Shown: positions 5,676-24,824 of the stretch, in pieces | Layout: every line of letters begins with the position of its first letter | Position numbering within the stretch: position 1 is the first letter of the stretch | Assembly (NCBI GenBank): GCA_965224465.1 | Contig: OZ245049.1 | Span: 150,001 to 182,000, forward strand | Source: Flavobacteriaceae bacterium | GTDB lineage: Bacteria; Bacteroidota; Bacteroidia; Flavobacteriales; Flavobacteriaceae | Reading direction: 5' to 3' | Length of the DNA stretch: 32,000 nt | The notes under the pieces: model-generated | Told to the model about the DNA's origin: nothing | Database searches by the model: none | The model's input: only the letters and a program-made list of their open reading frames with translations | Position numbers and translations under genes: made by a program

Positions 5676-6100
5676 ACCAACTACAATCCAAAATGACAGA
5701 TGTAAATTGTTTGTTCTATGTTCTAGCGTTGTTGAAAAACAGAACGATTGTAAAGATATAGGGGAACTCAAAAAAGTCTACCTGTTTAGAGGAAGAGAAC
5801 CTCCTTCCTATTGGTTGCAACGAATAAAAGCAGGTGCTAATAATCGAACCCACGTAATGGGAAATGCATGTCAAAATACTGCTGACCAATGCTTATCCGT
5901 ATCTAAAAACGGTAGAAACCAATTCCTATGAAAGAGCTTGAGAGCAAATGACCTAAAAACAGGTGATATCTATAAAGACCTTTGTTGATAGCCTCTTAAT
6001 TAATTACACACGCAATCTCTATAGTATTATCTTTTGAGCCTGTATAGTCAACAGGATGTTCATGGCTGGGCGCTACGCACCGCACGAACACTTAGTTATT
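5676..6100 (+). repeat. R1 copy A: ~425-bp conserved non-coding module (includes the 64-bp core at 5682-5745)
   Basis: Aligns by eye with 18310-18732 along its full length. Identity is near-perfect except for a divergent patch at 5746-5815 that contains indels. Confidence 0.9.
5693..5761 (+). CDS. Tiny ORF, island-type copy (22 aa, MTDVNCLFYVLALLKNRTIVKI)
   Basis: The first 20 codons are homologous to the ORF at 28412. Of the 8 differences, 7 are synonymous third-position changes. The C-terminus differs from the 28412 copy. Confidence 0.35.
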   Translation: MTDVNCLFYVLALLKNRTIVKI

Positions 6101-8540: not shown

Positions 8541-10663
8541 GTGTGCCCAGCATGGGCATCTTTTAACTACGGAAAGGTAGTTAATTAATCTAGAGGGTGC
8601 AAGTCCCTTATGTGCAGGAGTAACGTTCTGAAACATTAGTAAGTCGCAAGGGTGAAAACCGTGAGGTTTTATCTGAAGATTATTTGCGATTGAGGAATGA
8701 GTAAATACCCTACAAAGCTCGGTACTGACGAACAGAAACCGTATACAGAGGTATAATTACTTGGGTAAGTAAACACATCATTGCAACGCCCAAAAGAATA
8801 CTAAAAGGGTAGTTATGTAGATACGGCAGTGATTGAGTGAACTGTAGCGAAGTGGAACTCAAGAACACCTCTAAAAAATAAAAAGGAGGTGAATAAAGAA
8901 GATGTCATTACCTGGGGAGGTCTCCAAAGCCAGGAGTTGGTTCTATGGAGAAGTCAGCAGACGTCATAGTACCTATGGGAAACGAGTTGAGGAAAGACCT
9001 CAGATGGTCTCACAAATAGGGAAGGACAGAACATTAAATTACGTTGAAATTCAATTAGGATGCCTAGCTAGCCTAGTTTTAAACCAACAGGAGTACCCGA
9101 ATTATTTAACCTATGATTGACAAAGTACTAGAAGCTACCAACCTTTTTAAAGCAGCACGTCAAGTGAAGCGAAATAAAGGAGCTAGCGGAGTTGATGGTA
9201 TGAACCATCCGAGAAGAAATATTCCTAAGAAAGACTATTTATCTTCGGATGCTCTATGTGACCGATTTAAATAAATAAAACCGTCACATAAAAGTAACGG
9301 AACTTTCAACTTATATAGTTGAAAACCGTTCAGACATACTAACAACGATCCGTAAGAATAGCTATGTTCCAAACTCAATCTTAGGAGTAAGCATTCCAAA
9401 AGGCAAGGGTAAAACCAGACTTTTAGGAATCCCAACAGTAGTAGATAGATGGCTACAGCAAGCGGTAAGCCAACAATTAATGGTTCAGTTCGAATTTGAT
9501 TTTGAGCCACTTAGTTTTGGGTTATTCACAGCTTTTTATTTTAGGGAGTTCATGAGCTCCCGTTGGTCGGTTTAGACCACAAAAGAACATTCAAAAAGCA
9601 GTACTACAAGCTCAACAGTATATCAATAATGGTTACCAAGATATTGTAGATATTGACCTTAAAGGGTTCTTTGATGAAGTGGACCATTGTATCCTACTAC
9701 AACTTATTTACCACAGGGTAAAATGTCCAACAACCATGCGTTTAATCCGAAAATGGCTTAGAGTTCCTATTTTAATAAATGGGAAACTTCAAAAGCGTAG
9801 AAAAGGAATCCCGCAAGGAAGCCCAATTAGTCCCTTACTATCTAACATAATGTTAGACGTCTTGGATAAAGAAATGAAAAGAATGGGTTTACGGTACGTC
9901 CGCTACGCAGATGATTTTAGCATTTACGCAAAGACCAAACGTGAGGCGAAACAAATAGGGAATACGTTGTTTGTCTTCTTAAAAGACAAATTAAAACTAC
10001 CTATAAATAAAGCCAAAAGTGGCATTCGTAGACCCGTAAACTTTGAGTTACTAGGACATGGCTTTGTGCCAGTCTACAAAAAGGGAGTAAAAGGACAATA
10101 TATACTAGTAGTAGCAAAGAAAAGTTGGGCAAAGTTTAAGCGTAACCTAAAGAGTATTACCAAGAAAACCAAACCAATGTCATTGTCGGAACGTTTAGAA
10201 CGGCTTAATCAAGTCTGCCGAGGCTGGATGAATAATTACCGTTTAACCAACATCTATGCAAAAGTTAAAAAGCTAGATGAGTGGATAAGAAATCGGTTGC
10301 GATATTGTATTTGGCACGATTGGAAAAAACTCGAACGAAAACGTAAAAACCTAATCAGATTAGGAATAGAGAATGGACAAGCATACGCTTGGAGTAGAAC
10401 CAGAATGGGAGGATGGGCAGTAGCCCAAAGTCCAATTTTAAAGACTACCATTACCAAATCTAGACTTGTACGAAAAGGGTATAAACCTTTGATAGATTAC
10501 ATTAATAATACGCAGACTTCAATTTTTTGAACCGCCGTATAGGTTCATGAGAATTAGAAGTATTTTTATACTTATAATTAGAGATGACCGAGCGAAGCTT
10601 TCGTACGTACGGTGGTGTGAGAGGCGCAGTGGCAACTATTCAGTTGTCACCCGTCTACTCGAT
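8541..10663 (+). mobile_element. Full-length bacterial group II intron (~2.1 kb) with a decayed reverse transcriptase/maturase ORF and no En domain
   Basis: The 5' end is GUGUGCCCAGCAUGGG (compare Ll.LtrB, GUGCGCCCAGAUAGGG). A domain V-like sequence, ACCGAGCGAAGCUUUCGUACGUACGGU, lies at ~10596-10622. Domain VI has a bulged A at 10657, 7 nt from a terminal ..GAU. The RT ORF sits in domain IV. Confidence 0.9.
9113..10530 (+). pseudogene. Group II intron RT/maturase, disrupted by at least two frameshifting insertions
   Basis: Three collinear pieces lie in three frames. Piece 1 is MIDKVLE..GASGVDGMN (9113-9205, frame 2). Piece 2 is VTELSTYIV..IPKGKGKTRLLGIPTVVDRWLQQA..FEP (9294-~9510, frame 3). 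Piece 3 is RFRPQKN..IPQGSPISPLLSN..RYADDFSIYA..RGWMNNYR (9556-10530, frame 1). Confidence 0.85.
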
Positions 10664-10801: not shown

Positions 10802-13657
10802 TTAGTTTCCTGTTATTCCGTTTATAAATGTTTCCACAAATTCAACAATTTGTTTTAATATTTTATCTCCTAATTTTTTTCGTTTCAAAACAGACGGTTT
10901 TTCGCCTTCTATTAAATCCAACACTTCATCTCGCAAAGGTTCTCGTTCTGCGTAGAGATAGTTTTCTATTAGTTTCTGTGTTTTTTCTTCTGATAGATTT
11001 TCGTCTGTAGTTAGCTTTTTAAATGCTTTCTGCTGTTCCTCATTCCAAAATACTTCAAAGGCTTCTGGAATGTTGTCTGTATCTTCTATCGTTGGTAAAT
11101 TTTCTTCTATAAACTGCTGAATTAACTCTCGTTTACTTCTTAGGTTTACTTCTGTATTCAATAAGTTAGAAATTTCCTGTTCGGTTTTGGTTGCGTCTTT
11201 TTGCGTGTCCGATTTTAGTTTCATTAATAACTGAATAATGTAATTCACATTTATTTCGTCTCGGTGAATTAACTCCAATTCAAAATCTACATCTTCTAAA
11301 ATAGAAACTTTCTCAACAGCATTATCGCTTTTCACTTTTTGCCACAAATCCAAATACTTGCTTTTGTAATCTTCAAAAAGTTGTTCGGTCATTGCCAAAT
11401 CTTCCCATTTAAAATCTGAAAAAGAGTTTAGTATGTTCCGAATACGCATTAATTGACGAAACGCCTTAATAAATGCCAACTCATCATCTTCTGAAACTAA
11501 AGCGTTAACGCTGTTTACTGTTGGAGTAATCTTGATTAATTCGATAAAAGCTTCATTAAATTTGTTTACATAATCAACATAAGGTTCCATTATAATTACT
11601 TCAATGGCTTCTTTATTACTAAACAATGTTATGGCTTCATCTGTAGCCTTTTTTAAGTTTCTAAAAACCACAATATTTCCTTGCGATTTTTGTTCGTTTA
11701 GTATTCTATTGGTTCGTGAATAGGCTTGTATTAATCCGTGATATTTTAAGTTTTTATCTACATACAATGTATTTAGCGGTGGACTGTCAAAACCTGTTAA
11801 AAACATATTTACCACTAATAAAATATCAACTTTACGTTCTTTTACTTTCTTAGAAATATCATTGTAATAATTATAAAACGACTGACTGTCTTTGGTAGAA
11901 AACTTAGTGCCAAACATTTTGTTGTAATGTCCAATATATTCGTCTAATTTTTCTCTACTATGCACGTTCATTCCATACAAAGCAGGAGATTCTTCTACAA
12001 CCGAAACTTCTTCTGGAATAAATCCGTTGGCATCTGCATCCTCTTCATTGGCTACATAACTAAAAATGGTTGCAATTTTTAAGTTGTGTTTGCCTTCTTC
12101 TTTTTTCTTCTGAAATAAATCGTAGTATTTTATTAAGTTTTTAACACCACTTACACAAAACATTCCTGTAAACTCTTTTTGATGCGTTTTACGATTGTGA
12201 TTGGCAATAATATAATCGGTAATTTTATCCAAACGCTTTTCACTATCCATTAACTCTTTAGTGTCAATGTCTTCTACTTCAATGTCAATTTCGGTAGCAG
12301 ATTCTTTTCGTTTGTAACGACCTACATATTCTACCGAAAATTTGAGTACATTTTCATCTTTTATGGCATCTGTAATGACGTATTTATGCAAACACTCGCC
12401 AAATAGTTCTTTGGTAGTACGTTTTCCTAATTCATTTTTAACGGCATTGTCTTTAAATATAGGCGTTCCTGTAAAACCAAACATCTGGTTGTTATGGAAA
12501 AAGGCTTTTATTCTGTTGTGGGTTTCTCCAAATTGAGAACGGTGACACTCATCAAAAATAAATACAATTCGCTCATCTTGTAAAGCCTTCATTTTAGACA
12601 AATACTTGGCTTTGCTAATGGCTGTATTTAATTTTTGAATGGTGGTTACTATCAGTTTTGTATCGTCACCAAATTGTTTGACTAACGATTTTGTATTGTC
12701 TGTTCCATCAATACATCCTTTGCTAAAACTGTTAAACTCTTTGGTGGTTTGATAATCTAAATCTTTTCTATCTACCACAAAGACCACTTTTTTTACTTGT
12801 GGCATATTCATAATTATTTGGCTTGCCTTAAAAGAAGTTAAGGTTTTACCCGAACCTGTGGTATGCCAAATGTATGCGTTGTTGTTAGAGTTTTCTACTT
12901 GATTTACTAAGGTTTCTACTGCATAAAATTGATAGGGTCTAAGCACCATTAATATTTTGTGCGTTTCGTTTAGCACAATGTACTTGCTTATCATTTTTGA
13001 AATATGACAAGGCTCTAAAAAATCGCTTGTAAAACCGTTTATAATATTGGTTTGACGTTTATTGGCTGCATCTGTCCAAAAGAACGTTTGTTTAAAAGAT
13101 TGATTTCTGTTATTGGCATAATACTTTGTATTTACACCATTACTAATTATGAATATTTGAACATATTGAAACAAAGCCGATTTTGCACCAAACGAATGCC
13201 GTTGATACCGATTTATTTGGTTAAAGGCTTCTTTCATTTCCAAGCCTCTACGCTTTAGTTCTATTTGTACCAATGGCAAACCATTGATTAGTAAAGTAAC
13301 ATCATAACGGTTTTTGTAACTACCTTCCATAGTAACTTGGTGCGTTACTTGAAACTGGTTTTGACACCAAAAGTCTGTGTTTAGAAACTCAAAATAGAGG
13401 TTATCGCCATTATCTCGCTCAATATGCTGTTTGGCGCGTAGGGTTTTGGCTTTTTCAAAAACAGAACCTTTGCTGAGCATATTTAAAACACGTTCAAATT
13501 CTTTGTCTGAAAACGTAATGTTATTGTGCTTTTCTAATTGTGTTTTTAGATTGACTACTAAAGCGTTTTCATCTTTAATAAGCACTTTTTCGTACTTCAA
13601 TTGTTGCAATTGAGCCACTAATTGATTTTCTAATACTTGTTCTGGTTGTTTGCTCAT
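10802..13657 (-). CDS. hsdR: Type I restriction enzyme R subunit
   Basis: 951 aa. Helicase motifs are present: WHTTGSGKT (motif I) and FDECHRSQ (motif II). It is the last gene of the hsdM..hsdS..hsdR operon. Confidence 0.95.
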   Translation of the reverse strand: MSKQPEQVLENQLVAQLQQLKYEKVLIKDENALVVNLKTQLEKHNNITFSDKEFERVLNMLSKGSVFEKAKTLRAKQHIERDNGDNLYFEFLNTDFWCQNQFQVTHQVTMEGSYKNRYDVTLLINGLPLVQIELKRRGLEMKEAFNQINRYQRHSFGAKSALFQYVQIFIISNGVNTKYYANNRNQSFKQTFFWTDAANKRQTNIINGFTSDFLEPCHISKMISKYIVLNETHKILMVLRPYQFYAVETLVNQVENSNNNAYIWHTTGSGKTLTSFKASQIIMNMPQVKKVVFVVDRKDLDYQTTKEFNSFSKGCIDGTDNTKSLVKQFGDDTKLIVTTIQKLNTAISKAKYLSKMKALQDERIVFIFDECHRSQFGETHNRIKAFFHNNQMFGFTGTPIFKDNAVKNELGKRTTKELFGECLHKYVITDAIKDENVLKFSVEYVGRYKRKESATEIDIEVEDIDTKELMDSEKRLDKITDYIIANHNRKTHQKEFTGMFCVSGVKNLIKYYDLFQKKKEEGKHNLKIATIFSYVANEEDADANGFIPEEVSVVEESPALYGMNVHSREKLDEYIGHYNKMFGTKFSTKDSQSFYNYYNDISKKVKERKVDILLVVNMFLTGFDSPPLNTLYVDKNLKYHGLIQAYSRTNRILNEQKSQGNIVVFRNLKKATDEAITLFSNKEAIEVIIMEPYVDYVNKFNEAFIELIKITPTVNSVNALVSEDDELAFIKAFRQLMRIRNILNSFSDFKWEDLAMTEQLFEDYKSKYLDLWQKVKSDNAVEKVSILEDVDFELELIHRDEINVNYIIQLLMKLKSDTQKDATKTEQEISNLLNTEVNLRSKRELIQQFIEENLPTIEDTDNIPEAFEVFWNEEQQKAFKKLTTDENLSEEKTQKLIENYLYAEREPLRDEVLDLIEGEKPSVLKRKKLGDKILKQIVEFVETFINGITGN

Positions 13658-13660
13658 AGT

Positions 13661-13693
13661 TAATTACGAATTTGAAATTATGAATTACGAATT
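13661..13693. repeat. ATTACGAAT-type palindromic module a (TAATTACGAATTTGAAATTATGAATTACGAATT)
   Basis: It is an inverted repeat (32/33) of 15381-15413, and part of it is complementary to 14031-14060. It spans the stop codon of the four-helix-bundle gene. Confidence 0.9.
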
Positions 13694-14031
13694 GTTCGTT
13701 GGATACTTCCAATAATTTTCAATAATTCGTCTATATCTTTTAAAAGGCTTTCGCTTTGTTCTTTGCTTATATAATCTGTGTCTGTTAATAATCGTATCCA
13801 ATAATGGGTTTCTCTGGCTTCTTTGTATGCAATGGTCAATTTGGCAAAAAAATCTTTTTTACTTTGTCCGCCAATGGCTTCTTCAATATTTGCACCTATA
13901 GAAGTTCCCGAACGTAATAATTGTTTACTCAATACAAATTCCTTTTTTTCTGTGCACAAGTATTGATACACTTTTACAATTCTCACTGCAAAAGCATAAC
14001 TTTTTTCTTGTACTACATTCTCTTTTTTCAT
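13678..14031 (-). CDS. Four-helix-bundle protein (23S rRNA intervening-sequence protein / Avd-like family)
   Basis: 117 aa and all-helical. The motifs SGTSIGANIEEA and AYKEARETHYWIRLL are typical of this family as I recall it. Confidence 0.8.
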   Translation of the reverse strand: MKKENVVQEKSYAFAVRIVKVYQYLCTEKKEFVLSKQLLRSGTSIGANIEEAIGGQSKKDFFAKLTIAYKEARETHYWIRLLTDTDYISKEQSESLLKDIDELLKIIGSIQRTIRNS

Positions 14032-14060
14032 TCGTAATTCGTAATTAAAAATTCATAATT
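14031..14060. repeat. ATTACGAAT-type palindromic module b (TTCGTAATTCGTAATTAAAAATTCATAATT)
   Basis: It abuts the start codon of the four-helix-bundle gene. Its TTCGTAATTCGTAATT stretch pairs 15/16 with AATTATGAATTACGAA in module a. Confidence 0.85.
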
Positions 14061-14062
14061 GA

Positions 14063-15394
14063 TTACACAAACATTTTTTGCAACAAGCCTTTTTTGTAGG
14101 TTTTACTTTGTTCTATTTGCTGATTAACGGCATTTATTTTAGTATCTATTTTGCTTAGAAAATTGGCTATTTTGGTTTGTTCTTGGATTGAAGGGAGTGA
14201 TACTTTTATTTTTAACAAATCCTTAGTGTAAATTGCGGCAACACTTGTTGTTCCTGTTGCTAATTGTCTGAGTTTTTGCAAACCAACTATTGAATTAAAC
14301 CAATAATTCATATAAAAATTATTTTCAAATTTTATTCTCATTAAATTGGAGTTATAATAAGCCTTATCTAATTCATTTCTCCAAATAGAAACTTTTCCGA
14401 CTAATTCCAATGTGTTACGAGTATTAAAGAAAAGATCTCCATATTTCACTAAATCTTTTTCATCAATTACTTCAGAATTATTAATGTATTGTATCTTTTT
14501 TAAAGAAATATCTCCTCTACTTAAATTTCCCATTTTAATTAGAGGATTATTAGTTATAGTATCTGAGTTTGTATAATTACCTCCTAATTTAAAATTGATT
14601 AATAGCTCCCCCAACTTCTTCACTTCCCAATCAGGAAAGTCTTTTCCATTCTCATTTTTAAACCGAATGTAATTAGGAATTACGACTGATGAATTACGAG
14701 TTGTAGCCTCTATTAATTCGTCATTACCCAATTCGTAATTCGTAATTGATTCATTCGTAATTGATTTTTCGCCAACGGCAAAAATCTTTTGCATCATTCC
14801 TTTTTTGTAACTTTCTAATGCGTTTTTCTTGTCTTGTAGTTGGCTTATTTTTTTGTCTACAATGCTAAAGAAATGGGCTATTTTTTGTTGTTCGGGTAGG
14901 GTTGGGAATGGTAAAGGGAGTTTAAGTAAGCTTTCATTTGTAATATTCATTCTATCAAACCTTGCACCATAATTTGCTATAGATTTTAAATACTTATGCC
15001 AAAATGTAGTTTCAAAATATTGTTCGAAAAATGTGAGGTTTCCATTATTAAATCTTAAAACAGTGTAGAGAGGAGACATAACACCTTGTTCAAGATTGTT
15101 TCTTTTTAAAGGTCCAACAGGAGCATTGTTAGATATTCTTGGGTTGTAAATAAAATCGTCAATTTCAGCAATATAATAATTGTTTAAATTAACACTATTT
15201 GCTATTTTTTTATCAAAATAATCTTCTTGGTTTATAATACCTTTTTTTGCCGAATTGGTAAGAACTAAAGAAACTGAAAAATCAGTATTCTTTTTAGTTA
15301 TTCTTTGACCAATTTGTTCCAGTCTTTTCACTTCCCAAACCTCTTTAAATTCAGGAAATCGAACTTGTGGTATTTTGTTTAATTCGTAATTCAT
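14063..15394 (-). CDS. hsdS: Type I restriction enzyme S (specificity) subunit with an atypical ~37-aa insert after the central conserved region
   Basis: 443 aa with two target-recognition halves. Each half is followed by a conserved helix (LPEQQKIAHFF..KKGMMQKIF and LPSIQEQTKIANFL..KKGLLQKMF). Confidence 0.9.
   Translation of the reverse strand: MNYELNKIPQVRFPEFKEVWEVKRLEQIGQRITKKNTDFSVSLVLTNSAKKGIINQEDYFDKKIANSVNLNNYYIAEIDDFIYNPRISNNAPVGPLKRNNLEQGVMSPLYTVLRFNNGNLTFFEQYFETTFWHKYLKSIANYGARFDRMNITNESLLKLPLPFPTLPEQQKIAHFFSIVDKKISQLQDKKNALESYKKGMMQKIFAVGEKSITNESITNYELGNDELIEATTRNSSVVIPNYIRFKNENGKDFPDWEVKKLGELLINFKLGGNYTNSDTITNNPLIKMGNLSRGDISLKKIQYINNSEVIDEKDLVKYGDLFFNTRNTLELVGKVSIWRNELDKAYYNSNLMRIKFENNFYMNYWFNSIVGLQKLRQLATGTTSVAAIYTKDLLKIKVSLPSIQEQTKIANFLSKIDTKINAVNQQIEQSKTYKKGLLQKMFV
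14677..14763. repeat. ORF-less ATTACGAAT-type palindromic element inserted in frame within hsdS
   Basis: GAATTACGACTGATGAATTACGAG faces AATTCGTCATTACCCAATTCGTAATTCGTAATT..CATTCGTAATT across a 14-nt spacer. It is translated as KSITNESITNYELGNDELIEATTRNSSVVIPNY. Confidence 0.85.
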
Positions 15395-15413
15395 AATTTA
15401 AAATTCGTAATTA
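15381..15413. repeat. ATTACGAAT-type palindromic module e (inverted copy of module a)
   Basis: Its reverse complement, TAATTACGAATTTTAAATTATGAATTACGAATT, matches 13661-13693 at 32/33. It contains the hsdS start codon and its first codons (MNYEL). Confidence 0.9.
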
Positions 15414-15512
15414 GTTGCGTGAGGGATAGTAGTGGCATCCTTTTTTGTTTTTTCGCAAAAAAGATATAACGGATAGCCCGACCCTTGGGGCACGCCCAAA
15501 ATATTTGTTTGC

Positions 15513-16364
15513 TTATCCATCATTATTTTTTTTAGGGTTTACTTCTTTGTTGGTATTTTCTAAAAAGGTTTTAGCATTTATAGGGCTTACTACTTTTTTA
15601 CCAGTTCTTGCTTCTAGTTCTAACTTGGCAACCTTGGCAACATTGCCACCTTGTTTTGCTACTGTTTTGCTTTCTGTAAAGTTTTTTGGGTTTACTGCTT
15701 CCGATATATCTTTGGTAGATGCTTCTGCTAGCATATTTAATATGAGCTCGGTATTGGTCATATTATCTCTTAGATTTTCTTTTTTTAAGCCTTTTAAAAT
15801 TTTGTACTCTTTGGTGGTTTTACCTGCCCAACTTTGGGTTATTATATTGGTTAAAGTAGCAAATTGTACTCCTTCTTTTAAGCCTGTTTTTTTCCATTCA
15901 TCTGTCAGTTCCTTACGTATTTCAATACTTTTTAAACGTTGGTTTATCCAATTTTCAGAATACCCTAATTCTAAGTATTGTTTTAAAGCTCTATCAATAC
16001 TAAGTTCAGGGTCTTGTATTTCGTCTAGCCGTTCAGATGCTATTTGTGCCAACCAAAGCTTAAATGGCTCTGCTTTTGGTGATGGTATAGATTGTATGAG
16101 TCTAAATAGTTGTTTGGTATTAGCGACATCTGTTTTTCGCATTTTACCATCTTTAGCCAACATTTTCAAACCGTGACAATTCGTCACGGTTTCATTTCCT
16201 TCTGCTTTAAGTCTTTGCTTTAATTTTCTCCAATAGGCAGTTGGGTCTTTACTATCGGTTAATACCGTAATTACATCAACAATAGAAATAAACCAATCTT
16301 CTTTTTCTGTGTCCCAAATAGTCCTTACGCTACTGTCTTCAAATATTTTAATTTCGTTTTTCAT
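15513..16364 (-). CDS. Bro-N domain / DinD-like (DNA-damage-inducible protein D family) protein
   Basis: 283 aa. The N-terminus (IFEDSSVRTIWDTEKEDWFISIVDVITVL) is Bro-N-like. The C-terminal half resembles DinD (KILKGLKKENLRDNMTNTELILNMLAE). It lies between hsdM and hsdS. Confidence 0.7.
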   Translation of the reverse strand: MKNEIKIFEDSSVRTIWDTEKEDWFISIVDVITVLTDSKDPTAYWRKLKQRLKAEGNETVTNCHGLKMLAKDGKMRKTDVANTKQLFRLIQSIPSPKAEPFKLWLAQIASERLDEIQDPELSIDRALKQYLELGYSENWINQRLKSIEIRKELTDEWKKTGLKEGVQFATLTNIITQSWAGKTTKEYKILKGLKKENLRDNMTNTELILNMLAEASTKDISEAVNPKNFTESKTVAKQGGNVAKVAKLELEARTGKKVVSPINAKTFLENTNKEVNPKKNNDG

Positions 16365-16373
16365 CTTAAATAT

Positions 16374-17945
16374 TTAAAAAGGTGTGTCAATATTCAGTTC
16401 TTTACATAATGCAATCAATTCTTTATCGGTTTCTTGCATACTGGTTTCTAATGTTTTTAAGGTGTTAGAAACTTGGGCAATATCAACTGGTTCTTCCTCT
16501 TCAAAAGTGTTTACATATCTTGGGATGTTTAAGTTGTAATCGTTTTCGGCTATTTCTGTTAAAGCGGCAACATAACTGTATTTATCCTTTGCGGTTCTTT
16601 CTGTATACGTAGTAATAAGGCTTTCAATATTTTTTGTAGAAAGGGTATTCTGTGTTTTTACTTTTTCAAAATGTTTACTGCTATCAATAAACAATATATC
16701 TTCTGGGTTTTCTCTACATTTTTTAAATACTAAAATACAGGTTGGTATGCTGGTGCCATAAAACAGATTGGCAGGTAAACCAATAACGGCATCTAAATAA
16801 TTACGGTCTTCGATTAAGTATTTACGAATGTGTTGTTCTGCTCCACTTCTAAATAATGCTCCGTGAGGTAGTACAATTGCCATTGTTCCGTTTTCTGCCA
16901 AATGGTGAATCATATGTTGTACAAAGGCGTAATCGGCTTTAGACTTTGGTGCTAGTTTTCCGTATTGGCTAAAACGGTCATCACTTGTAAAAAGAGAATT
17001 TGCAGACCAATGTGCCGAAAATGGAGGATTGGCAACTATGGCTTCAAAACGTTCCTCTAAATGTTGTGGGTGTTCTAAAGTGTCTTCTTGTTTTATGTCG
17101 AATTTACGGTAATGAATATCGTGTAAAATCATATTCATTCTCGCCAAGTTGTAGGTAGTACGGTTTAGTTCTTGTCCGTAAAAATTGGTGACGCTTTCTA
17201 CTTCTTTGGCAACACGCAGTAGGAGAGAACCCGAACCACAAGTGGGGTCGTAAACCGATTTTAGTTTGGTTTTTCCTTGGGTTACCAATTTAGCCAACAC
17301 AATACTTACTTCTTGTGGTGTGTAAAATTCACCTGCTTTTTTTCCTGCTCCACTTGCAAACTGCCCGATTAAGTATTCGTAAGCATCTCCTAAAACATCA
17401 ATTTCGGTATTTTCAATTTTGAAGTCTATCTTGTCTAAATGAGAAAGTACTTTTGCAATAATTTCGTTTCTTGTTTCTGGAGATTTCCCTAATTTGGTAG
17501 AGTTCAAATCCATATCTTCAAACAGATTGTCAAAATCTTCTTCACTTTCCGTTCCCATTGTACTGAGTTGGATATTGGTCAGAATCTTTTGTAAATCTTC
17601 TAAAATGAAGTTAGAAATACCTTCTACATCAGAATTTCCTCTTTTAGCAAGTTGGCTAAACAATTCGCTAGGTTTTAAGAAGTAACCTAGTTTCTCAACT
17701 GCTTCTTCTTTTATGGCTTTAATGTATTCTTGTCCGTTTTCGGAATCTTCTTTTATGTTGGTAAAAAGGATTCCGTCTGGTTTTAGAATTGTATTGGCAT
17801 ACAAGTTCATTTTTTCAGATAGATATTTGTAGAAAATAAAACCCAAAATGTAATCTCGAAACTCGTCCGCATTCATTTTTCCTCTAAGCGTATTGGCTAT
17901 ATTCCACAGTTGTTGTTCGAGTTGTTTTTTTTGGTCTTCACTCAT
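16374..17945 (-). CDS. hsdM: Type I restriction enzyme M subunit (N6-adenine DNA methyltransferase)
   Basis: 523 aa with the AdoMet motif YDPTCGSGSLLL and the catalytic motif IVANPPFS. Confidence 0.95.
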   Translation of the reverse strand: MSEDQKKQLEQQLWNIANTLRGKMNADEFRDYILGFIFYKYLSEKMNLYANTILKPDGILFTNIKEDSENGQEYIKAIKEEAVEKLGYFLKPSELFSQLAKRGNSDVEGISNFILEDLQKILTNIQLSTMGTESEEDFDNLFEDMDLNSTKLGKSPETRNEIIAKVLSHLDKIDFKIENTEIDVLGDAYEYLIGQFASGAGKKAGEFYTPQEVSIVLAKLVTQGKTKLKSVYDPTCGSGSLLLRVAKEVESVTNFYGQELNRTTYNLARMNMILHDIHYRKFDIKQEDTLEHPQHLEERFEAIVANPPFSAHWSANSLFTSDDRFSQYGKLAPKSKADYAFVQHMIHHLAENGTMAIVLPHGALFRSGAEQHIRKYLIEDRNYLDAVIGLPANLFYGTSIPTCILVFKKCRENPEDILFIDSSKHFEKVKTQNTLSTKNIESLITTYTERTAKDKYSYVAALTEIAENDYNLNIPRYVNTFEEEEPVDIAQVSNTLKTLETSMQETDKELIALCKELNIDTPF

Positions 17946-18105
17946 TTATTTTAGTCTATTTTTTTAAGTTCACAAAGTACATATTTTTTGGCTAACGGAA
18001 TGTAGAGCGTTGGCAAGAAATTACTCTTTTGATTTTTTGTGTTTTGGCTTTGAGCGTTGGCAAAAACCAAATGTGCAATTTGTGTGGTTGGCTTTTTTTT
18101 AGCTT

Positions 18106-18306
18106 GCACCTAACACTCATATATCATCAATAAACTTCCAAAACTTGACGTTATTTCCGTTATATCTATAATAGTTTCGGGGTATGTGTTGTTTTTTTGT
18201 TAAATATACTCAAAATTTTTTAAATTTTCAAGGGGTCCAACCATTTTTTATTGTTATTTCGATGGTCTTGATGTACATCTCTGAGGTTTTTGGAAAAGCA
18301 TAGCTT
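18106..18306 (+). repeat. R2 copy 1 (~200-bp conserved non-coding module, proximal variant A)
   Basis: Aligns by eye with 19849-20045, 21505-21711 and 28200-28389. It lies 160 nt upstream of the hsdM start on the minus strand. Confidence 0.9.
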
Positions 18307-18309
18307 AAC

Positions 18310-18732
18310 ACCAATTACAATCCAAAATGACAGATATAAATTGTTTGTTCTATGTTCTAGCGTTGTTGAAAAACAGAACGACTGTAAGATATAGAAACTC
18401 ATAACAGTCTATCTGTTTAGTGGAAGTGGTCCACCTGCTTATTGGTTACAACGAATAAAAGCAGGTGCTAATAATCGAACCCACGTAATGGGAAATGCAT
18501 GTCAAAATACTGCTGACCAATGCTTATCCGTATCGAAAAACGGTAGAAACCAATTCCTATGAAAGAGCTTGAGAGCAAATGACCTAAAAACAGGTGATAT
18601 CTATAAAGATCTTTGTTGATAGCCTCTTAATTAATTGCACGCAATCTCTATAGTATTATCTTTTGAGCCGGTATAGTCAACAGGATGTTCATGTTGGGCG
18701 CTAGGTAGGTACCGCACGAACACTTAGTTATT
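18310..18732 (+). repeat. R1 copy B (includes the 64-bp core at 18316-18379)
   Basis: Full-length match to 5676-6100. It is directly preceded by R2 copy 1. Confidence 0.9.
18327..18404 (+). CDS. Tiny ORF, island-type copy (25 aa, MTDINCLFYVLALLKNRTTVRYRNS)
   Basis: Same N-terminal 18-20 codons as the ORFs at 5693 and 28412; the tail differs. Confidence 0.3.
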   Translation: MTDINCLFYVLALLKNRTTVRYRNS

Positions 18733-18856
18733 AGTGCTGTTTTTATCGTTTTCAAAGTTTAAGAAAACACAATTCTTAAAAACTATATTCGGATTTAATC
18801 CATTTTCAATATTGAAAAAATTACTAACTATTTAAATAATTGAAAGAACAAAAGTT

Positions 18857-19762
18857 TTAAAAAGAATTAGAATTTTCTTTAGAAACATTTTGATGAAAGT
18901 CCTTCAATAATTGACAAACTAGTGTTTGGTTTTTTTCTTTAAACCTTCTTATCCAAAATGAATAAACAAAAAATATTCTATGACTTAATTTACTTCCTTG
19001 GTCATTTTTAGATGAGTAATTTTCATCTGACAAAATATCTTTAACCTTTTCGCTAGCAAAGTCACTAATCGTATTGTCTATTTCTTCATATACATCCCAA
19101 TAGTTATCTGAATCTATATCTTGCGAATACATTTTATTAGTTAAATCGTTTTTATATCTTATATGTTCATTATTTTCTACTTCAGTATAAGCAATTATTA
19201 AGGCTTTTACTATTGATGATACACCTGAGTCTTCATATAAAGTGTTGTTTTTAAATAATAAATACAATACTTGTTTTTCTCTGGGAGTAATTAGTTTTTT
19301 TAAGTTCTCTGGACTCCTGTCTACACTGTTCCAGATATAATTAACAACAGAAAATTTATCTAGGATAGCATCTAATTTTCCAAGATTTTTTTTATTGATA
19401 AATTGTCCACTGCTCCATAAACTTGTCATTATATTTATATTCTCAAGATCAAGAGATTTAAAAGAAACTTTTATAAAGTTTTCAGTATTTATAATTGGAG
19501 TAGATTCATCAATAAAACTAATTAGAGTCTCTGCATTAATTTGACTTTCTAAAGTTGAAATTTCCGTTTTGTTATTTTTAATTTTATCGTTTGAATTGTC
19601 TAAATCTCCAGATAAAACATTAATAATAGAATCTTTAGCTGTTAATTGTCTTTGTAAATTATTAATTTGAAGTTGTTGTTCTTCAGTTTTATTATTACAA
19701 GAATATAAAAGAAATAAAGAAACTATTAAAAATGGTATTGGGGTGCGTTTTTTGAAATTCAT
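18857..19762 (-). CDS. Hypothetical lipoprotein
   Basis: 301 aa. The N-terminus has a signal peptide plus lipobox-like sequence (FLIVSLFLLYSC). I recognise no domain. Confidence 0.65.
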   Translation of the reverse strand: MNFKKRTPIPFLIVSLFLLYSCNNKTEEQQLQINNLQRQLTAKDSIINVLSGDLDNSNDKIKNNKTEISTLESQINAETLISFIDESTPIINTENFIKVSFKSLDLENINIMTSLWSSGQFINKKNLGKLDAILDKFSVVNYIWNSVDRSPENLKKLITPREKQVLYLLFKNNTLYEDSGVSSIVKALIIAYTEVENNEHIRYKNDLTNKMYSQDIDSDNYWDVYEEIDNTISDFASEKVKDILSDENYSSKNDQGSKLSHRIFFVYSFWIRRFKEKNQTLVCQLLKDFHQNVSKENSNSF

Positions 19763-19848
19763 ATTTTGGTAACGGATTATATTTTTTTATGCAAGAATAA
19801 ATCTCCTATGTTTTAAATTTATAATTTTTCGTTAATCACATTGTTTAC

Positions 19849-20045
19849 AACACCCGTATATCGACTATAGAACTCTTAGAGTAGTTGTTATTTCTAACAT
19901 AGCTAGAGTAGAATGAGTGATTATTTGTTTTTTTTGTTAAAAGTATTCAAATTTTTTAAATTTTAAAGCGGTCCAACGATTTTTTTATTGTTTATTTCGA
20001 TGGTCTTCGTGTAAATCTCTGTGGGTTTTGGAGAAGCATGGCTTA
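19849..20045 (+). repeat. R2 copy 2 (proximal variant B)
   Basis: Starts AACACCCGTATATC, 86 nt upstream of the lipoprotein start codon. Its distal ~110 bp are identical to R2 copy 3. Confidence 0.9.
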
Positions 20046-20059
20046 GATAAGAAAAAAAT

Positions 20060-20290
20060 CAATTTTAAAGACTACCAAACACAAATCTAGACTTGTACGC
20101 AAAGGATACAAACAGTTGATAGAAACCAATAATAATACGCAAACTTCAATTTTTTGAACCGCCGTATAGGTTCATGAGAATTAGAAGTGTTTTTATACTT
20201 ATAATTAGAAATGACCGAGCGAAGCTCTCGAATGTACGGTGGTGTGAGAGGCGCAGTGGCAACTATTCAGTTGTCACCCGTCTACTTGAT
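20060..20290 (+). mobile_element. 5'-truncated group II intron fragment (end of the RT ORF, then domains V-VI)
   Basis: Matches 10433-10663 of the full-length intron, including GACCGAGCGAAGCTCTCGAATGTACGGT and the domain VI hairpin GTGGCAACTATTCAGTTGTCAC. It ends ..CTACTTGAT. Confidence 0.9.
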
Positions 20291-20838
20291 TAGGCATCTG
20301 GCTTTTTATTTATTTCTTTTTTCAAACTTGTCATTGTCTGTTTTGGAGATTTTTCAATATATCTATTTGCTTTTTCTTTGATTTCAGCGTCTAAAGATTT
20401 TAAATATCTGATAGCATTCTCAATAGAAAAATCGATTCCTTGCTTTTCTTTGAAGTTACTGGGTAAGTCTGTCCATAATACAGCTGAGATATTATTCTCA
20501 TTAGCCCATTGTTCAATGCTTTCTATTAATACATCTGAAAGGTGTGAATTCTTTTCTTTATCTTTCAAATTAATAAATCCAATTCTCTTATTTATTGTTC
20601 CTTCTCGTTGTCTTAAATTCTCTATAGATTTTTCAATATCTGAGCCATCTGAAATCGCCCAATATGTTTCAATTAATGTTCCATGTTTTTCATCAATTAC
20701 TAATGTTAGTCGACCATCCTTTGATATGCGAGAGAATTCGATAGGAAGTTTAACTCCACCTTTATTCCAATCTGAAGCTATTTTTAATTCCCTTTTGTCC
20801 CAAATTAGACTACCCCAAGCTAAAATTGTAATTTTCAT
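20290..20838 (-). CDS. ChaC / gamma-glutamylcyclotransferase-like fold protein (putative)
   Basis: 182 aa. The N-terminal ILAWGSLIWD resembles the (Y/W)GSL(M/I)W motif of ChaC/GGCT. GRLTLVIDEKHGTLIETYWA and LRQREG resemble the ChaC core and its catalytic Glu region. This is from memory only. Confidence 0.5.
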   Translation of the reverse strand: MKITILAWGSLIWDKRELKIASDWNKGGVKLPIEFSRISKDGRLTLVIDEKHGTLIETYWAISDGSDIEKSIENLRQREGTINKRIGFINLKDKEKNSHLSDVLIESIEQWANENNISAVLWTDLPSNFKEKQGIDFSIENAIRYLKSLDAEIKEKANRYIEKSPKQTMTSLKKEINKKPDA

Positions 20839-20841
20839 ATT

Positions 20842-21486
20842 TCAATAGTTTATGTGAAGTCCAGCTATATTATTGAATTTACGAATAAAGGCTTCTTGTA
20901 AATCCTTAAGTAAAACTAATTCTTTGTTGTAGCATTCCAAATATTCTTTTATTCGGCTCTCAAGTATATTCCTATCTATTACATTATATGCATTTTTATA
21001 TTCATAAAATTCCGAATTATTATCTACTCTTATTATCCAATTTAATTTCGTAGAAGCTTCGTGTAATAATCCGCATCTTACATTTTCATAAAAACCTACT
21101 GCTAATCCATTTGTACTTGTGAATACTGTATTAAAAGGTTTTCTATTTTCGAAAAAAGAGATAAATTTATCTTTGCTTCTATTATATTCATATTGTTGCA
21201 ATTGATTATCTCTACAATATCTATAAATTCCTCCTGTATAAGTTGATTCCAAAAACTCAATCAATGAACAAAGAATTGCTGTGATTGAAAAACCCTCTCC
21301 ATTCAATTTATCATTATCCTTAATGTCTTTAATTGCTTTAAAATATCTCGTTTGTAACCTCTCATCAAAGAATTCATATGCCTCATTCCAAAGACTAGTA
21401 TCATTAGGTTTGGCTCGTAATTTATTTCTTAGGTTTTTCCAATCCAATACTGTTTTATATCCTGCTATTTGTATTGAATCATTCAT
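20842..21486 (-). CDS. Hypothetical protein with no recognisable domain; first gene of a two-gene operon
   Basis: 214-aa ORF. Its stop lies 3 nt from the start codon of the downstream ChaC-like gene. R2 copy 3 begins 18 nt upstream of its ATG. Confidence 0.6.
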   Translation of the reverse strand: MNDSIQIAGYKTVLDWKNLRNKLRAKPNDTSLWNEAYEFFDERLQTRYFKAIKDIKDNDKLNGEGFSITAILCSLIEFLESTYTGGIYRYCRDNQLQQYEYNRSKDKFISFFENRKPFNTVFTSTNGLAVGFYENVRCGLLHEASTKLNWIIRVDNNSEFYEYKNAYNVIDRNILESRIKEYLECYNKELVLLKDLQEAFIRKFNNIAGLHINY

Positions 21487-21504
21487 CTTTTTCTGCTTGT
21501 GCCT

Positions 21505-21711
21505 AACACCCGTATATCATCAATAAACTTCCAAAACTTGACGTTATTTCCGTTATATCTATAATAGTTTCGGGGTATGTGTTGTTTTTTTGTTAAAAGT
21601 ATTCAAATTTTTTAAATTTTAAAGCGGTCCAACGATTTTTTTATTGTTTATTTCGATGGTCTTCGTGTAAATCTCTGTGGGTTTTGGAGAAGCATGGCTT
21701 AGATAAGAAAA
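21505..21711 (+). repeat. R2 copy 3 (proximal variant A)
   Basis: Its proximal part is near-identical to R2 copy 1 and its distal part is identical to R2 copy 2. Confidence 0.9.
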
Positions 21712-21725
21712 AAATCAATTTTAAA

Positions 21726-21945
21726 GACTACCAAACACAAATGTAGACTTGTACGAAAAGGATACAAACGGTTGATAGAAACCAATAATAATACGCAAAC
21801 TTCAATTTTTTGAACCGCCGTATAGGTTCATGAGAATTAGAAGTGTTTTTATACTTATAATTAGAAATGACCGAGCGTAGCTCTCGAATGTACGGTGGTG
21901 TGAGAGGCGTACTCTGGCTAAGATAGTTGGAGCCGTCTATTCGAT
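21726..21945 (+). mobile_element. 5'-truncated group II intron fragment with a divergent distal domain VI
   Basis: It has the same 5' junction as the 20060 copy (GATAAGAAAAAAATCAATTTTAAAGAC). Domain V is conserved. The distal stem of domain VI is replaced (TACTCTGGCTAAGATAGTTGGAG) while the base of the stem and the bulged A are kept. Confidence 0.85.
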
Positions 21946-21973
21946 TATGTCCTTTTTTTATTTTTCACGTTGA

Positions 21974-22816
21974 TTAAATACATAATTTTATCAGTTTACA
22001 ATCCATTAATTTTGCTGGATTGTTAGGGTCTTTTATCTGCTTATTTTCAATACTAAAACCACTTTCTTTTATTCCTTCAAGTTTAGTTCTACTTTCTTTA
22101 GGAAAACTATTGTATTTATCTGTTGGAATTATACCAACCAATTCAAATTCTTTGTCGGTTGGTTTGTGTAAGTAATTGAATACTTTTCTAGGGTTTTCAA
22201 TTTGCCACATTTCCCTAATTCTCAAGTTTGTTATTCCTAAAGGGTCAACTTGATTAACTCTTCCTAATTCTTTAGTATTTGCGAAAACAACATCTGGAAT
22301 AGTTTCTATGCCGTCTGAAATAGTCGTTTTTATTCTTTGGTATGTTTCGTGTTTGGCTGCGTACGAACTACCATAAACCATCCATAATGATTTCAGACTC
22401 GTATCTGTAGTGTGTCCAACACAGTAAATTAAATCTTTAACTGTCCAATCTTCACATTCCTTGCATTCTTTCGTAATCATAGGACTTGTATGTCTCAAAT
22501 CAGTTTTTGGATAACTGCTATTTAAAGCCAAACTTGAATTTGCACTTTGAGTTTTCTTAACTTCAATAGCATCTCCTCCTTTTATCATAATATCAGGTGG
22601 ATTATTTTGGGAACCTAACCAAGAAAATTCTTGATTATAAGTCTGCATTTTTTTTGTTTCGTTTGTTAATCCCAATGTTCCAGCAAACGCATCCTTGATA
22701 TAATTTTCAAGTGAGTCTCCCATTCCATTTGCTCGATTCCTGCCCGAATACATTACACGTATTTCAAAATTCTTTTGATTTACGATATTATAAATTGCTT
22801 CTAAAATATTTGTCAT
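21974..22816 (-). CDS. Type II restriction endonuclease, NgoPII-like (predicted GGCC)
   Basis: 280 aa. Its start overlaps the stop of the upstream HaeIII-like methyltransferase gene by 4 nt (ATGA). [22 protein letters not shown] matches my recollection of the NgoPII family. Confidence 0.65.
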
Positions 22817-24198
22817 AGGGCAACTGCTTCTTTAGTTTTTTGAGTTTGTTTTGCTTTTTTCGTTGTGATTTCGTTTGCCTTTATTTGTTGCATTATACTA
22901 TTTGCAAGAAATTTAGCCAAATTAACAGGAACTGCATTTCCAATCATTTTGTAACCTGCTGCAATTTTTTTGTAATGAAAAATAAAGTCATTAGGAAATG
23001 TTTGAATTCTTGCACATTCTCGAACACTTAAGCGTCTATATAAATGTTCTTTTCCGGGAACGAAAACACGAACATTTTTTTCAATAAATTTCATTTTTGG
23101 TGCTTGTGGATGAATAGGAGCGTGTCGTCCACCTGCTTGGATAGTATAAGATTGTTCATCCCAATCTCTAACACGGTTTCTTGACATAAACATTGAAGAA
23201 AAACTTCCAATCATATATTCGTGATTAGGAAGAATACAATTTTCGCCATTTGTATTATTATACTCTAAAGCAGGTAAAACACCTTCTTTTAAATCCGAAA
23301 TAGCTGTTTCAAGAGTAACTTTTGGAAATGTTTCAGTTGGAAATTGGTACTTAAAATTTAAGTCTTTTCTAATTCCAATAAAAAATATTCTTTTTCGGTC
23401 TTGAGGTACATTGTAATCAGATGCGTTAAGCATTTGAAAAGAAAGTTCGTAACCAACTCCTGCATTTCTGAAAAGTTCTTTTATTCCTTCAAGAGCTTCT
23501 GTATGTTTTGAAATTAGCATTCCACTCACATTTTCGGCTAAAAAGAATTTTGGTTGTTTAGCTTCTAAAATTCGTATAAAATCATAAAACAATTGACCTC
23601 TTTTGTCTTTAATTCCTCTTGCAGAACCAGCTTCACTCCAACTTTGACAAGGAGGACCTCCAATTATTCCGTCACATTCAGGAACTTCATCTGCAGGGAT
23701 ATTTACAAGACTTCTTTTGTCAAGAATTGTATTAGGGTGATTTTTTTCATAAGTTTCCCAAATTTCTTTGTCATATTCATTTGCCCAAACAACATTGAAT
23801 CCTGCTTTTTGGAAACCTAAATCAAGTCCGCCTGCCCCTGCGAAAAAAGATGCAATTTTCATATTTAATTGTGTTTGAAGTGATTTATTAAGTATTCTAC
23901 GATATTCTGCTTTTTCTTCTGCAACTTGTAAAAGTTGTTTTGTACAGTTCGTTTCATAAATTTGTTTTCCGATTTGATCAGTAACATATTCATTCTGTAA
24001 TTCTTTAAGATTGAGTTTGAAAATTTCCGCAAGTTTAGGTAAGCGTTTTTTATCAAAATCTCGTTTCCCATTCTCGATTTTACTCAAATTTGCAGAATCT
24101 AAACTTAGTTTAGCTGCAAGTTGAGTCAAAGTCAATTTGTTTTTTGTTCGTAAAAGTCGGATGTATTCTCCAAATGTGGTATTCATAAGACTTGTCAT
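22813..24198 (-). CDS. DNA (cytosine-5) methyltransferase, HaeIII/NgoPII-like, with an N-terminal XRE-type HTH domain
   Basis: C5-MTase motifs are present: [12 protein letters not shown] (I), GGPPCQSWS (IV), LAENV (VI), [10 protein letters not shown] (VIII) and GNAVPV (X). Long stretches resemble M.HaeIII as recalled. The first ~70 aa ([25 protein letters not shown]) form an HTH. Confidence 0.9.
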
Positions 24199-24388
24199 TT
24201 TTTGACAAATTTACAAAATTTATTGGATTATTTTAATTTAGTAGTGATTTTTTTTAATTGGGCATGACGTTGTTGTGTATTATTAGTTGCGTGTTTCAAG
24301 TACTAAAGTTAGTAAATAAATCACAGATAGAAATTCCACAAGGACTTTCGTAAATTGGCTAAAACCAACAATTAATTATACACGGTGT

Positions 24389-24812
24389 GTGTGCCCAGCA
24401 TGGGCGTCTTTTAACTATGGAAAGGTAGTTAATTATTCTAGAGGGTGCAGTCCCTTATGTACAGGAGTAACGTTCTGAACTGCGTAGCTCTCAGGAACAC
24501 CTCTAAAAAAATAAAAGGGAGTGAATAACTGCGAAGCTATCATGAACACCTCTAAAAAAATAAAAGGGAGTGAATAAAATCCAATTTTAAAGACTACCAT
24601 TACCAAATCTAGACTTGTACGAAAAGGGTATAAACCTTTGATAGATTACATTAATAATACACAAACTTCAATTTTTTGAACCGCCGTATAGGTTCATGAG
24701 AATTAGAAGTGTTTTTATACTTATAATTAGAAATGACCGAGCGTAGCTCTCGTACGTACGGTGGTGTGAGAGGCGCAGTGGCAACTATTCAGTTGTCACC
24801 CGTCTACTCGAT
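24389..24812 (+). mobile_element. ORF-less mini group II intron (internal deletion derivative, ~424 nt)
   Basis: Its first ~90 nt match the 5' end of the full-length intron. Two tandem 49-nt units follow that match 8842-8890. The last ~232 nt match the 3' end of the full-length intron (domains V and VI intact). Confidence 0.85.
24480..24577 (+). repeat. Tandem duplication (2 x 49 nt) inside the mini intron
   Basis: CTGCGTAGCTCTCAGGAACACCTCTAAAAAAATAAAAGGGAGTGAATAA is followed by CTGCGAAGCTATCATGAACACCTCTAAAAAAATAAAAGGGAGTGAATAA. Confidence 0.9.
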
Positions 24813-24824
24813 TATATGCAGGGC

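Follow-up and report, generated by a model that had tools for sequence, protein, structure and literature searches.

A small gene encoding a four-helix-bundle (4HB) protein lies between hsdS and hsdR of a type I restriction-modification (R-M) operon in a 32,000-nucleotide stretch of a Flavobacteriaceae genome (GenBank assembly GCA_965224465.1, contig OZ245049.1, positions 150,001 to 182,000; the whole stretch is hereafter called the window). We found that the gene is tightly bracketed by inverted arrays of a 7-nt repeat, AATTNNN, that it is missing from the orthologous operons, and that the same arrangement recurs around related genes in many unrelated operons. As judged from these comparisons, it is firmly shown that the gene and its arrays make up a discrete cassette inserted between hsdS and hsdR. 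We think it probable that this is a selfish cassette of the intervening-sequence type, carried in a host transcript, in which an intact, promoter-less and functional 4HB gene lies between inverted AATTNNN arrays, and which has inserted in the hsdS–hsdR spacer.

The features of the cassette and of its host operon are as follows (window coordinates).
13662..14060, minus strand: complete cassette (arm, open reading frame, arm), 399 nt
13678..14031, minus strand: 4HB open reading frame (ORF), intact, 117 aa, PF05635 / TIGR02436
14029..14060, minus strand: 5′ arm (array C), on the mRNA AATTATG AATTTTT AATTACG AATTACG AATG
13662..13693, minus strand: 3′ arm (array D), on the plus strand AATTACG AATTTGA AATTATG AATTACG AATT
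14063..15394, minus strand: hsdS, the host gene 5′ of the cassette, PF01420
10802..13657, minus strand: hsdR, the host gene 3′ of the cassette, with HSDR_N, SWI2_SNF2 and EcoR124_C
14671..14762, minus strand: ORF-less hairpin within hsdS (sense array 14762-14715 and antisense array 14702-14671)
15381..15412, minus strand: solo sense array A, AATTACG AATTTTA AATTATG AATTACG AATT
16364-15513, minus strand: Bro-N-domain gene between hsdM and hsdS, 283 aa
17945-16374, minus strand: hsdM

The 5′ arm begins 2 nt past the hsdS stop codon and includes the AUG of the 4HB ORF. The 3′ arm, present in its antisense form on the mRNA, encodes the C-terminal ..IRNS* and terminates 4 nt ahead of the hsdR AUG. 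Therefore, the 399-nt insert contains essentially nothing else. The arms are imperfect inverted repeats of 31–36 nt (13657-13692 against 14030-14065 in a repeat search, 36 nt, 83% complementary), and each is a tandem array of ∼4.5 heptamers (4.4–4.6 copies by Tandem Repeats Finder) of the types AATTACG, AATTATG and AATTTnn. In the predicted fold of a 426-nt RNA, a long-range terminal stem was present in both the minimum free energy (MFE) and the centroid structures (z = −4.6).

These observations agree with the original prediction, made from the letters of this DNA alone, in every sequence detail that it gave. It had placed a 354-nt ORF between hsdS and hsdR, with the repeat motif encoding the C-terminal IRNS; the ORF is that at 13678-14031 (minus strand, 117 aa, ending in ..IRNS*). 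We located AAUUACGAAUUACGAA, said to precede the AUG on the mRNA strand, at 14046-14031, where its final A serves as the first base of the AUG, and UUCGUAAUUCAUAAUU, said to overlap the stop, at 13691-13676, with the stop codon (13680-13678) inside it; the two 16-mers pair at 15 of 16 positions as claimed. The inverted modules that were described do flank the ORF, but they are not modules of 9–16 nt: they belong to larger heptamer arrays that occur at five places in the hsd operon, three of them, besides the two cassette arms, having been overlooked in the prediction.

With at most one mismatch allowed, AATTACGAATT is found at 18 sites in the window, where 2.7 would be expected, and none of 100 shuffles reached 18; thus its repetition is not due to chance. 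Fifteen of the 18 matches fall within 13662-15412. The period-7 arrays detected in the 32 kb by Tandem Repeats Finder were likewise confined to hsd operon sites (4.4–4.7 copies, 71–79% match). Array A supplies the start codon of hsdS (MNYEL..). The hairpin inside hsdS is translated in frame as a 34-aa insert of HsdS (VGEKSITNESITNYELGNDELIEATTRNSSVVIPNY), situated just after the central conserved helix and ahead of the second target-recognition domain. Arrays A and D, inverted and 1.7 kb apart, are identical at 31 of 32 positions and so match each other better than do the cassette's own arms (27/31); together they bracket hsdS plus the cassette. The HsdS allele of the window is only ∼36–39% identical to the HsdS of operons whose HsdM and HsdR are 90–95% identical. 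The spacer that separates the Bro-N gene from hsdS contains, directly adjoining array A, a full-length Flavo-1 RNA motif (RF01705; 15409-15487) on the plus strand, antisense to the hsd genes; it scores 61.7 bits, above the gathering score of 42. This motif is the sole Rfam match of the region, where no Rfam family matched the cassette stems, and it was not found in 11 other Flavobacterium-type loci scanned.

Arrays at the start of hsdS and inside it raise the question of phase variation, in which the heptamer repeats, being prone to slippage, would turn hsdS and the 4HB gene on or off. Slippage by a 7-nt unit alters the reading frame, heptamer number differs among Coxiella strains, and a truncated HsdS could alter specificity, as with half-HsdS proteins. 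However, arrays of two to three perfect consecutive units at 71–79% self-match are short for efficient slippage, and such switching leaves unexplained why the arrays are paired and inverted round the ORF in all kinds of operon. We consider this explanation very improbable.

To compare filled and empty sites, we used HsdR as the query in a metagenome scan and obtained 80 orthologous hsdR loci (60–96% identity). None of the 80 had a 4HB gene upstream of hsdR, and only three short AATT-period-7 arrays were present in the 658 kb of these control loci. At two of them (L086 and L150, HsdR 95% identical), the hsdS stop is 1–11 nt before the hsdR AUG, with no repeats. Because none of the 80 orthologous loci has the gene and the adjoining hsdS–hsdR spacers are of 1–11 nt, we regard the cassette as an insertion. 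The orthologous HsdS in L081 begins MEKQQNKIP and does not have the 34-aa insert. In the closest orthologous operons (L081 3195-3826, also L082, L083 and L085), the hsdS–hsdR junction is occupied by ∼1 kb of other material, part of which resembles, by eye, a broken Abi-type gene; accessory genes seem to insert at this junction quite generally.

An independent comparison was provided by a junction, conserved in synteny among Flavobacterium loci, at which an Oxidored_FMN gene neighbours an AMP-ligase gene. This junction is empty in L179 (9-nt spacer) and L175 (25-nt spacer) and is filled with a cassette in L010, L012, L177 and others. In L173 and L174, a four-unit sense array stands alone at the junction, and the AMP-ligase is 95% identical to that of the filled L010. 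No target-site duplication was visible at either the hsdS–hsdR or the Oxidored_FMN/AMP-ligase junctions, where the compared sequences have diverged and the junctions are ragged, differing by a few codons.

We next consider how widely this layout occurs. The 117-aa protein has at least 8000 close homologs. A one-genome-per-species scan confirmed at least 427 relatives among the 599 pattern matches listed, and 80 loci (61–91% identity) were kept. They span Bacteroidota, Chlorobiota, Ignavibacteria, Verrucomicrobiota, Lentisphaerae, Patescibacteria, Dehalococcoidia, Gammaproteobacteria, Desulfobacterales, Gemmatimonadota, Latescibacterota, Calditrichota and others (more than 12 phyla overall). 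At 68 of 78 loci, the inverted match between the flanks exceeded that of all 50 shuffles (median flank score of 37.5 in the inverted orientation vs 20 in the direct one). A lag of 7 was the best self-match period in 141 of 156 flanks, compared to 7 of 160 control segments. Predicted MFE folds had a median of 28 arm-to-arm pairs, and at least 15 such pairs were formed at 61 of 81 loci, compared to 15 of 81 when the 3′ flank was shuffled. The arms abut or overlap codons: they usually reach the start codon, and begin 8–15 nt before the end of the stop codon. The three variable bases of the heptamer depend on the lineage (ACG, AAG/AGG, ACT, AAT, GGG; at one locus the unit is AGAGTAA), and an arm matches its own partner better (mean score 37.8) than it matches arms of other loci (31.7), own exceeding cross at 60 of 78 loci.

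A similar picture emerged from 12 distant homologs (38–69% identity; 11 from plasmids and one from a phage), among them genes of cyanobacteria, Chloroflexota and Treponema. Read by eye, 11 of the 12 had inverted heptamer arrays, and lag 7 was the best period in 23 of 24 flanks. The heptamers were ACCAGTG in Euhalothece, AATTCAA in Nostoc, CCCCAAT / CGTAAAT in Planktothrix, AAAAGTA in Anabaena, GATGAAG / ATGAATT in Chlorohelix, CTCTCCG in Treponema, TTAGTGA in Bernardetia, CTTCnnn in Pseudanabaena, ATTTTAG in Gloeocapsa, of the AATTAGG type in Monoglobus, where a pseudogene lies between hsdS and hsdR, and AATTACG in Dolichospermum, where the arm orientations are swapped. In the latter (L171, a plasmid, 1000-1600), a 49%-identical 4HB gene has the same AATTACG unit as the window, with CGTAATT ×4 and then ∼7 units of the GGAATTT type on its upstream side, and AATTACG ×4 downstream. 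Taken as a survey of sequences, these data firmly show a very widespread family with a conserved layout of array, sense ORF and inverted array. The original prediction had looked to the flanks of other 4HB genes and to empty sites in orthologous hsd operons, and had argued for a selfish cassette rather than an ordinary operon member; both comparisons came out in its favour.

The protein itself is assigned to PF05635 (E 3e-31, 108.1 bits against a cut-off of 33.8) and TIGR02436 (E 9e-34, 116 bits against a cut-off of 24), and residues 3-116 match PDB 2rld (E 2.6e-36), an entry with five chains. As judged from its codons, it is functional and under strong purifying selection: the ratio of non-synonymous to synonymous substitution (dN/dS) was 0.06–0.19 wherever computable against 29 gap-free relatives, with synonymous sites at or near saturation. 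R40, S41, T43, S44 and A47 and the E71/E74/Y77/W78 block are near or fully invariant, and ten residues (A15, Q37, S41, T43, A47, K64, E71, E74, Y77 and W78) are fully invariant down to ∼31% identity; the protein thus shows the GxxRxxxSxxxNxxE-type motif described for the family (PMC3936711). Premature stops are present in ∼7 of the 80 copies. Copies that have premature stops or frameshifts and yet keep their arrays are those of L009, L031, L037, L043, L059, L066, L079 and L167.

The proposed membership of the protein in the family of Avd, the accessory protein of diversity-generating retroelements (DGRs), stands as far as remote homology and the shared four-helix-bundle fold are concerned, but the scores of the Avd models are weak and below their curated cut-offs (bAvd, E 1.4e-4; NF033474, E 5.7e-5, 23.4 bits against a cut-off of 80). 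The window also differs from Avd systems in having neither an adjacent DGR-type reverse transcriptase (RT) nor a template/variable repeat pair. The nearest RT belongs to a group II intron at 8655-10530 (plus strand; RNA domains D1-D4 at 8655-8998), whose RT/maturase ORF at 9679-10530 (GTG start, 283 aa, possibly truncated) is convergent with hsdR and lies ∼270 nt past the hsdR stop.

The arms keep the AATTACG consensus although synonymous sites are saturated; therefore, the arrays must be either constrained or continually homogenised. One way to account for the constraint would be TRAP-like binding, in which a 4HB oligomer contacts one heptamer per subunit and regulates translation of its own gene or of the neighbours. 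The retained consensus fits this explanation, as do the arrays covering the AUGs of the 4HB gene and hsdS and the ∼4–5 units per array, a number in keeping with the pentamers of the family (the five chains of 2rld, and the homopentamer cited for the Xanthomonas protein in PMC4990558). For other bacteria, it has also been suggested that heptamer arrays just 5′ of start codons act as sites for regulators (PMC4679880). On the other hand, proteins of similar identity are associated with other heptamers (AATTGGG, AGAGTAA, AATTAAT), and the 49%-identical Dolichospermum protein has AATTACG in flipped orientation. The flipped arrays and the variety of heptamers make sequence-specific single-strand recognition unlikely, and we have down-weighted recognition of the sense heptamer by the 4HB protein on these grounds. 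Overall, we regard TRAP-like regulation as unlikely.

The genomic neighbourhood of the 4HB genes is informative about their dependence on the host. The upstream neighbour is co-directional at 76 of 77 loci and the downstream neighbour at 61 of 72, and the gaps to the neighbours are mostly 20–60 nt, that is about one array length. The neighbouring genes themselves are varied; Pfam pairs include Glycos_transf_3 upstream with IGPS downstream (trpD/trpC-type), HlyD with AcrB, Oxidored_FMN with AMP-binding, and RhuM or Fic with N6_Mtase. This is the pattern expected of a promoter-less insert expressed by read-through transcription, and not that of a dedicated subunit of one system. Going by gene order and orientation, it is firmly shown that the cassette depends on host transcription. 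No rRNA was detected in the window and 28 related loci by an Rfam scan, which found tRNAs alone, next to four loci. Carriage by phages was limited to two weak matches in a phage collection, and none was found in an IMG/VR scan, in which the patterns were exact to the window protein, so that its sensitivity was low.

Type I R-M operons host ∼7 of the 80 close relatives, at varying positions (before hsdM, after Fic, or in the hsdS–hsdR gap), and the order hsdS–4HB–hsdR recurs in L037 and Monoglobus. Distant members are often found in DISARM, cas and methyltransferase loci; an earlier study reported 18 such genes within cas loci, one example lying between cmr3 and cmr2 (PMC3936711). This recurrence at defence loci could suggest that the 4HB protein is a genuine accessory or regulatory part of type I R-M, or of defence systems generally. 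Such a role is hard to reconcile with its absence from all 80 orthologous operons, with the housekeeping operons that make up most of the neighbours, with its inconstant position within R-M operons and with PADLOC, none of whose models matches the 4HB protein. We find it highly unlikely that the gene belongs to a defence system in this sense, and the comparisons firmly indicate that the cassette is not an R-M component. The Bro-N-domain gene of the same operon does match a PADLOC candidate defence family (PDC-S13, E 1e-135), and some of the orthologous operons (L081, L082, L085, L144) have a relative of it at 80–89% identity, whereas others have none. A further repeat of the window, at 24478-24577 (49-nt unit, 2.0 copies, 94% match), is unrelated to the heptamers.

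Arrays were also found apart from the gene. Defining an array strictly as at least three AATT at 7-nt spacing, we counted 190 in 706 kb (4HB loci plus the window), where ∼1 is expected by chance; 139 of the 190 were within 120 nt of a 4HB ORF end. The density per 10 kb falls from 68.6 at 0–120 nt from the gene to ∼1.5 at 120–1000 nt and 0.18 at 4–5 kb, compared to 0.05 at the HsdR control loci. The arrays away from ORF ends include eight sense-plus-antisense hairpins with loops of 18–59 nt. An additional hairpin, at ∼7857-7950 of L009, lies in frame within an AcrB-like transporter gene (NYELGIRNYESSENRNSSFVIP) and closely resembles the hsdS insert of the window. Over the initial 50 kb of L180, a Planktothrix plasmid, nearly all the period-7 arrays are at 13017-25160, in a DISARM operon with a 4HB gene; among them is a 28.6-copy AATCGTA array (23470-23669) that overlaps a small annotated ORF. 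Within a 50-kb stretch of a Nostoc plasmid (L181), two ORF-less elements are bounded by the same AATTCAA unit as the gene. On this plasmid, two ORF-less elements at 5840-6090 and 17300-17550 lie between inverted arrays of the TAATTCG and CAATTCG types and have a common core, ..aattaattcat[t]tagggtacagagccacctaattttaattatgaaaa.., which suggests that cargo other than the 4HB gene can sit between such arrays. We considered the ORF-less Nostoc elements as internal-deletion derivatives of the gene and set the idea aside: their spacers have no obvious by-eye similarity to the ends of the gene, and two share another core.

The presence of the same arms on ORF-bearing and ORF-less forms recalls REPIN/RAYT systems (REPtrons), in which a gene lies between inverted repeat copies, ORF-less hairpin doublets occur in transcribed intergenic spacers, and no target-site duplication is made. 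The cassette shares the inverted repeats around a gene, the ORF-less hairpins and the location in transcribed spacers, and no target-site duplication was visible at the diverged junctions that were compared. REPIN/RAYT elements differ in that their repeats are single GC-rich palindromes, whereas those of the window are tandem heptamer arrays, and the window protein is a 117-aa bundle that lacks HUH/Y1 motifs.

The main rival to our favoured explanation is an element of this kind acting at the DNA level. The element would move as DNA, perhaps by way of single-strand hairpins, the arrays would be its ends or protein-binding sites, the 4HB protein would act in trans, the ORF-less hairpins would be non-autonomous copies and the RNA stem a by-product. 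The steep fall of array density away from the gene, the clustering of arrays in the gene-bearing operon (in both the window and the Planktothrix DISARM operon), the strong purifying selection on the protein with its invariant E71, E74 and Y77, and the absence of a visible target-site duplication, as for hairpin-dependent elements, are all consistent with it, and so is the absence of a G.U bias in the arms described below. However, profile searches found no recognisable nuclease, transposase or recombinase domain in the 4HB protein: the cassette has terminal inverted repeats, and its sole ORF encodes a helical bundle with no transposase-family match. Moreover, no recent identical copies were seen, and the near-absolute co-orientation with the upstream gene is not explained by DNA alone, unless read-through is needed for expression. 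We hold such a DNA-level element to be possible but somewhat doubtful; it is also compatible with the favoured explanation.

Among the closest known counterparts of the cassette are the intervening sequences of rRNA (Coxiella burnetii, Leptospira, Xanthomonas, Brucella). Their ORF is from the same protein family and lies in the sense orientation of the host transcript, in the loop of a ∼28-bp stem formed by complementary terminal sequences. In Coxiella, the S23p AUG of the 23S rRNA intervening sequence is immediately preceded by three GACAGAT heptamers and a degenerate copy, all inside the 28-bp terminal stem; RNase III cuts at the first of them, and their number is strain-variable (PMC4990558). 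The likeness to an rRNA intervening sequence claimed by the original prediction is thus strengthened, as tandem heptamers directly 5′ of the AUG are common to the window and Coxiella. Intervening sequences with the S23p ORF have been called selfish and horizontally transferred (PMC4990558). They differ from the cassette in being located within 23S (or 16S) rRNA, where they replace a helix tip, whereas the host of the window cassette is an mRNA operon.

Under the favoured explanation of a selfish cassette of the intervening-sequence type, the mRNA of the hsd operon would include the transcribed cassette. The arms would pair into a stem of ∼28–36 bp with the ORF as its loop. This stem would hold both the start and the stop codons of the 4HB gene, and would bring the hsdS stop beside the hsdR start. 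RNase III would probably cut the stem, by analogy with the experimentally characterised 23S rRNA intervening sequences of Coxiella and Leptospira. The cut would set the ORF RNA loose and leave the hsdMS and hsdR messages as separate molecules, perhaps shifting their ratio. ORF-less hairpins made of the same arrays, such as the one in frame in hsdS of the window, would be non-coding derivatives.

Several points weigh against this explanation. At ∼10 of the 78 loci, the flanks are direct instead of inverted, or there are none. We tried the asymmetry of mismatches as a discriminator between RNA- and DNA-level constraint and found no signal: the transitions between arms would give G.U on the sense strand in 39 cases and A.C in 35, besides 133 transversions, which gives no indication that RNA pairing, rather than symmetry at the DNA level, has been selected. 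A plain double-stranded RNA stem accounts neither for the strict 7-nt period nor for the conservation of AATTACG. The Coxiella element differs in its unit (GACAGAT instead of AATTACG) and in its ORF, reported as untranslated and decaying, whereas that of the window is intact and strongly conserved under purifying selection; the two may therefore behave differently. Finally, a mobility mechanism common to the rRNA versions and the window cassette cannot be shown from these data.

Insertions that are translated in frame have a precedent in the Rickettsia palindromic elements, short palindromes inserted in frame in protein-coding genes. The inserts in hsdS and in the AcrB-like gene of L009 are alike in this respect, but belong to an unrelated sequence family; they have heptamer-array arms, and there is an ORF-bearing form.

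Heptanucleotide repeats are reported to be the most over-represented of the longer simple repeats in bacteria, and we know of no accepted explanation for their excess. Described arrays include TAACTGA in Beggiatoaceae, cyanobacteria and Bacteroidetes, GGGAATC in Xanthomonas and GGGGAYT in Nostoc (PMC4679880, PMC4692102). Like the arrays reported here, they are short intergenic tandem 7-nt arrays, often at start codons and sometimes in inverted pairs, and their role is unexplained; those of the window type differ in being paired around a 4HB gene and clustered near it. A term search of the text of these two papers found no mention of a 4HB or 23S/S23 gene. What was known already is the rRNA intervening sequences with this ORF, the annotated 4HB genes and the unexplained heptanucleotide arrays (PMC4679880, PMC4692102). 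In open-access papers and bioRxiv, we found neither AATTACGAATTACG, nor NYELRITNYEL, nor a link between PF05635 and heptamers outside Coxiella, nor a description of PF05635 genes outside rRNA as operon-borne cassettes, though an earlier description elsewhere is possible.

To our knowledge, no function has been established for the S23p/four-helix-bundle family since the early 1990s, when rRNA intervening sequences were described, while thousands of near-identical members are present across phyla. The 4HB genes in CRISPR and other defence operons have previously been read as accessory functions. These two puzzles and the heptanucleotide excess are tied by the present observations to one architecture, namely a sense ORF, inverted 7-nt arrays and insertion in a transcript. 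As a speculation, which we think rather unlikely, mobile 'intervening cassettes' would form a very large class, so far unrecognised, that resides in host transcripts, in rRNA or in operon mRNAs, and PF05635 genes with inverted heptamer arrays would be its protein-coding members. The ORF-less hairpins and solo arrays would be its non-autonomous members, and the Avd-like protein would serve in the maintenance or mobility of the element, chiefly in the vicinity of its own gene. Such a class would explain much of the heptanucleotide excess, as well as the 'accessory' 4HB genes in CRISPR, DISARM and R-M loci. For annotation, the finding means that such genes should not be treated as subunits of the operons that surround them, and that the arrays of the cassettes explain odd peptides such as NYELRITNYEL and the repeat-derived start and stop codons of neighbouring genes.

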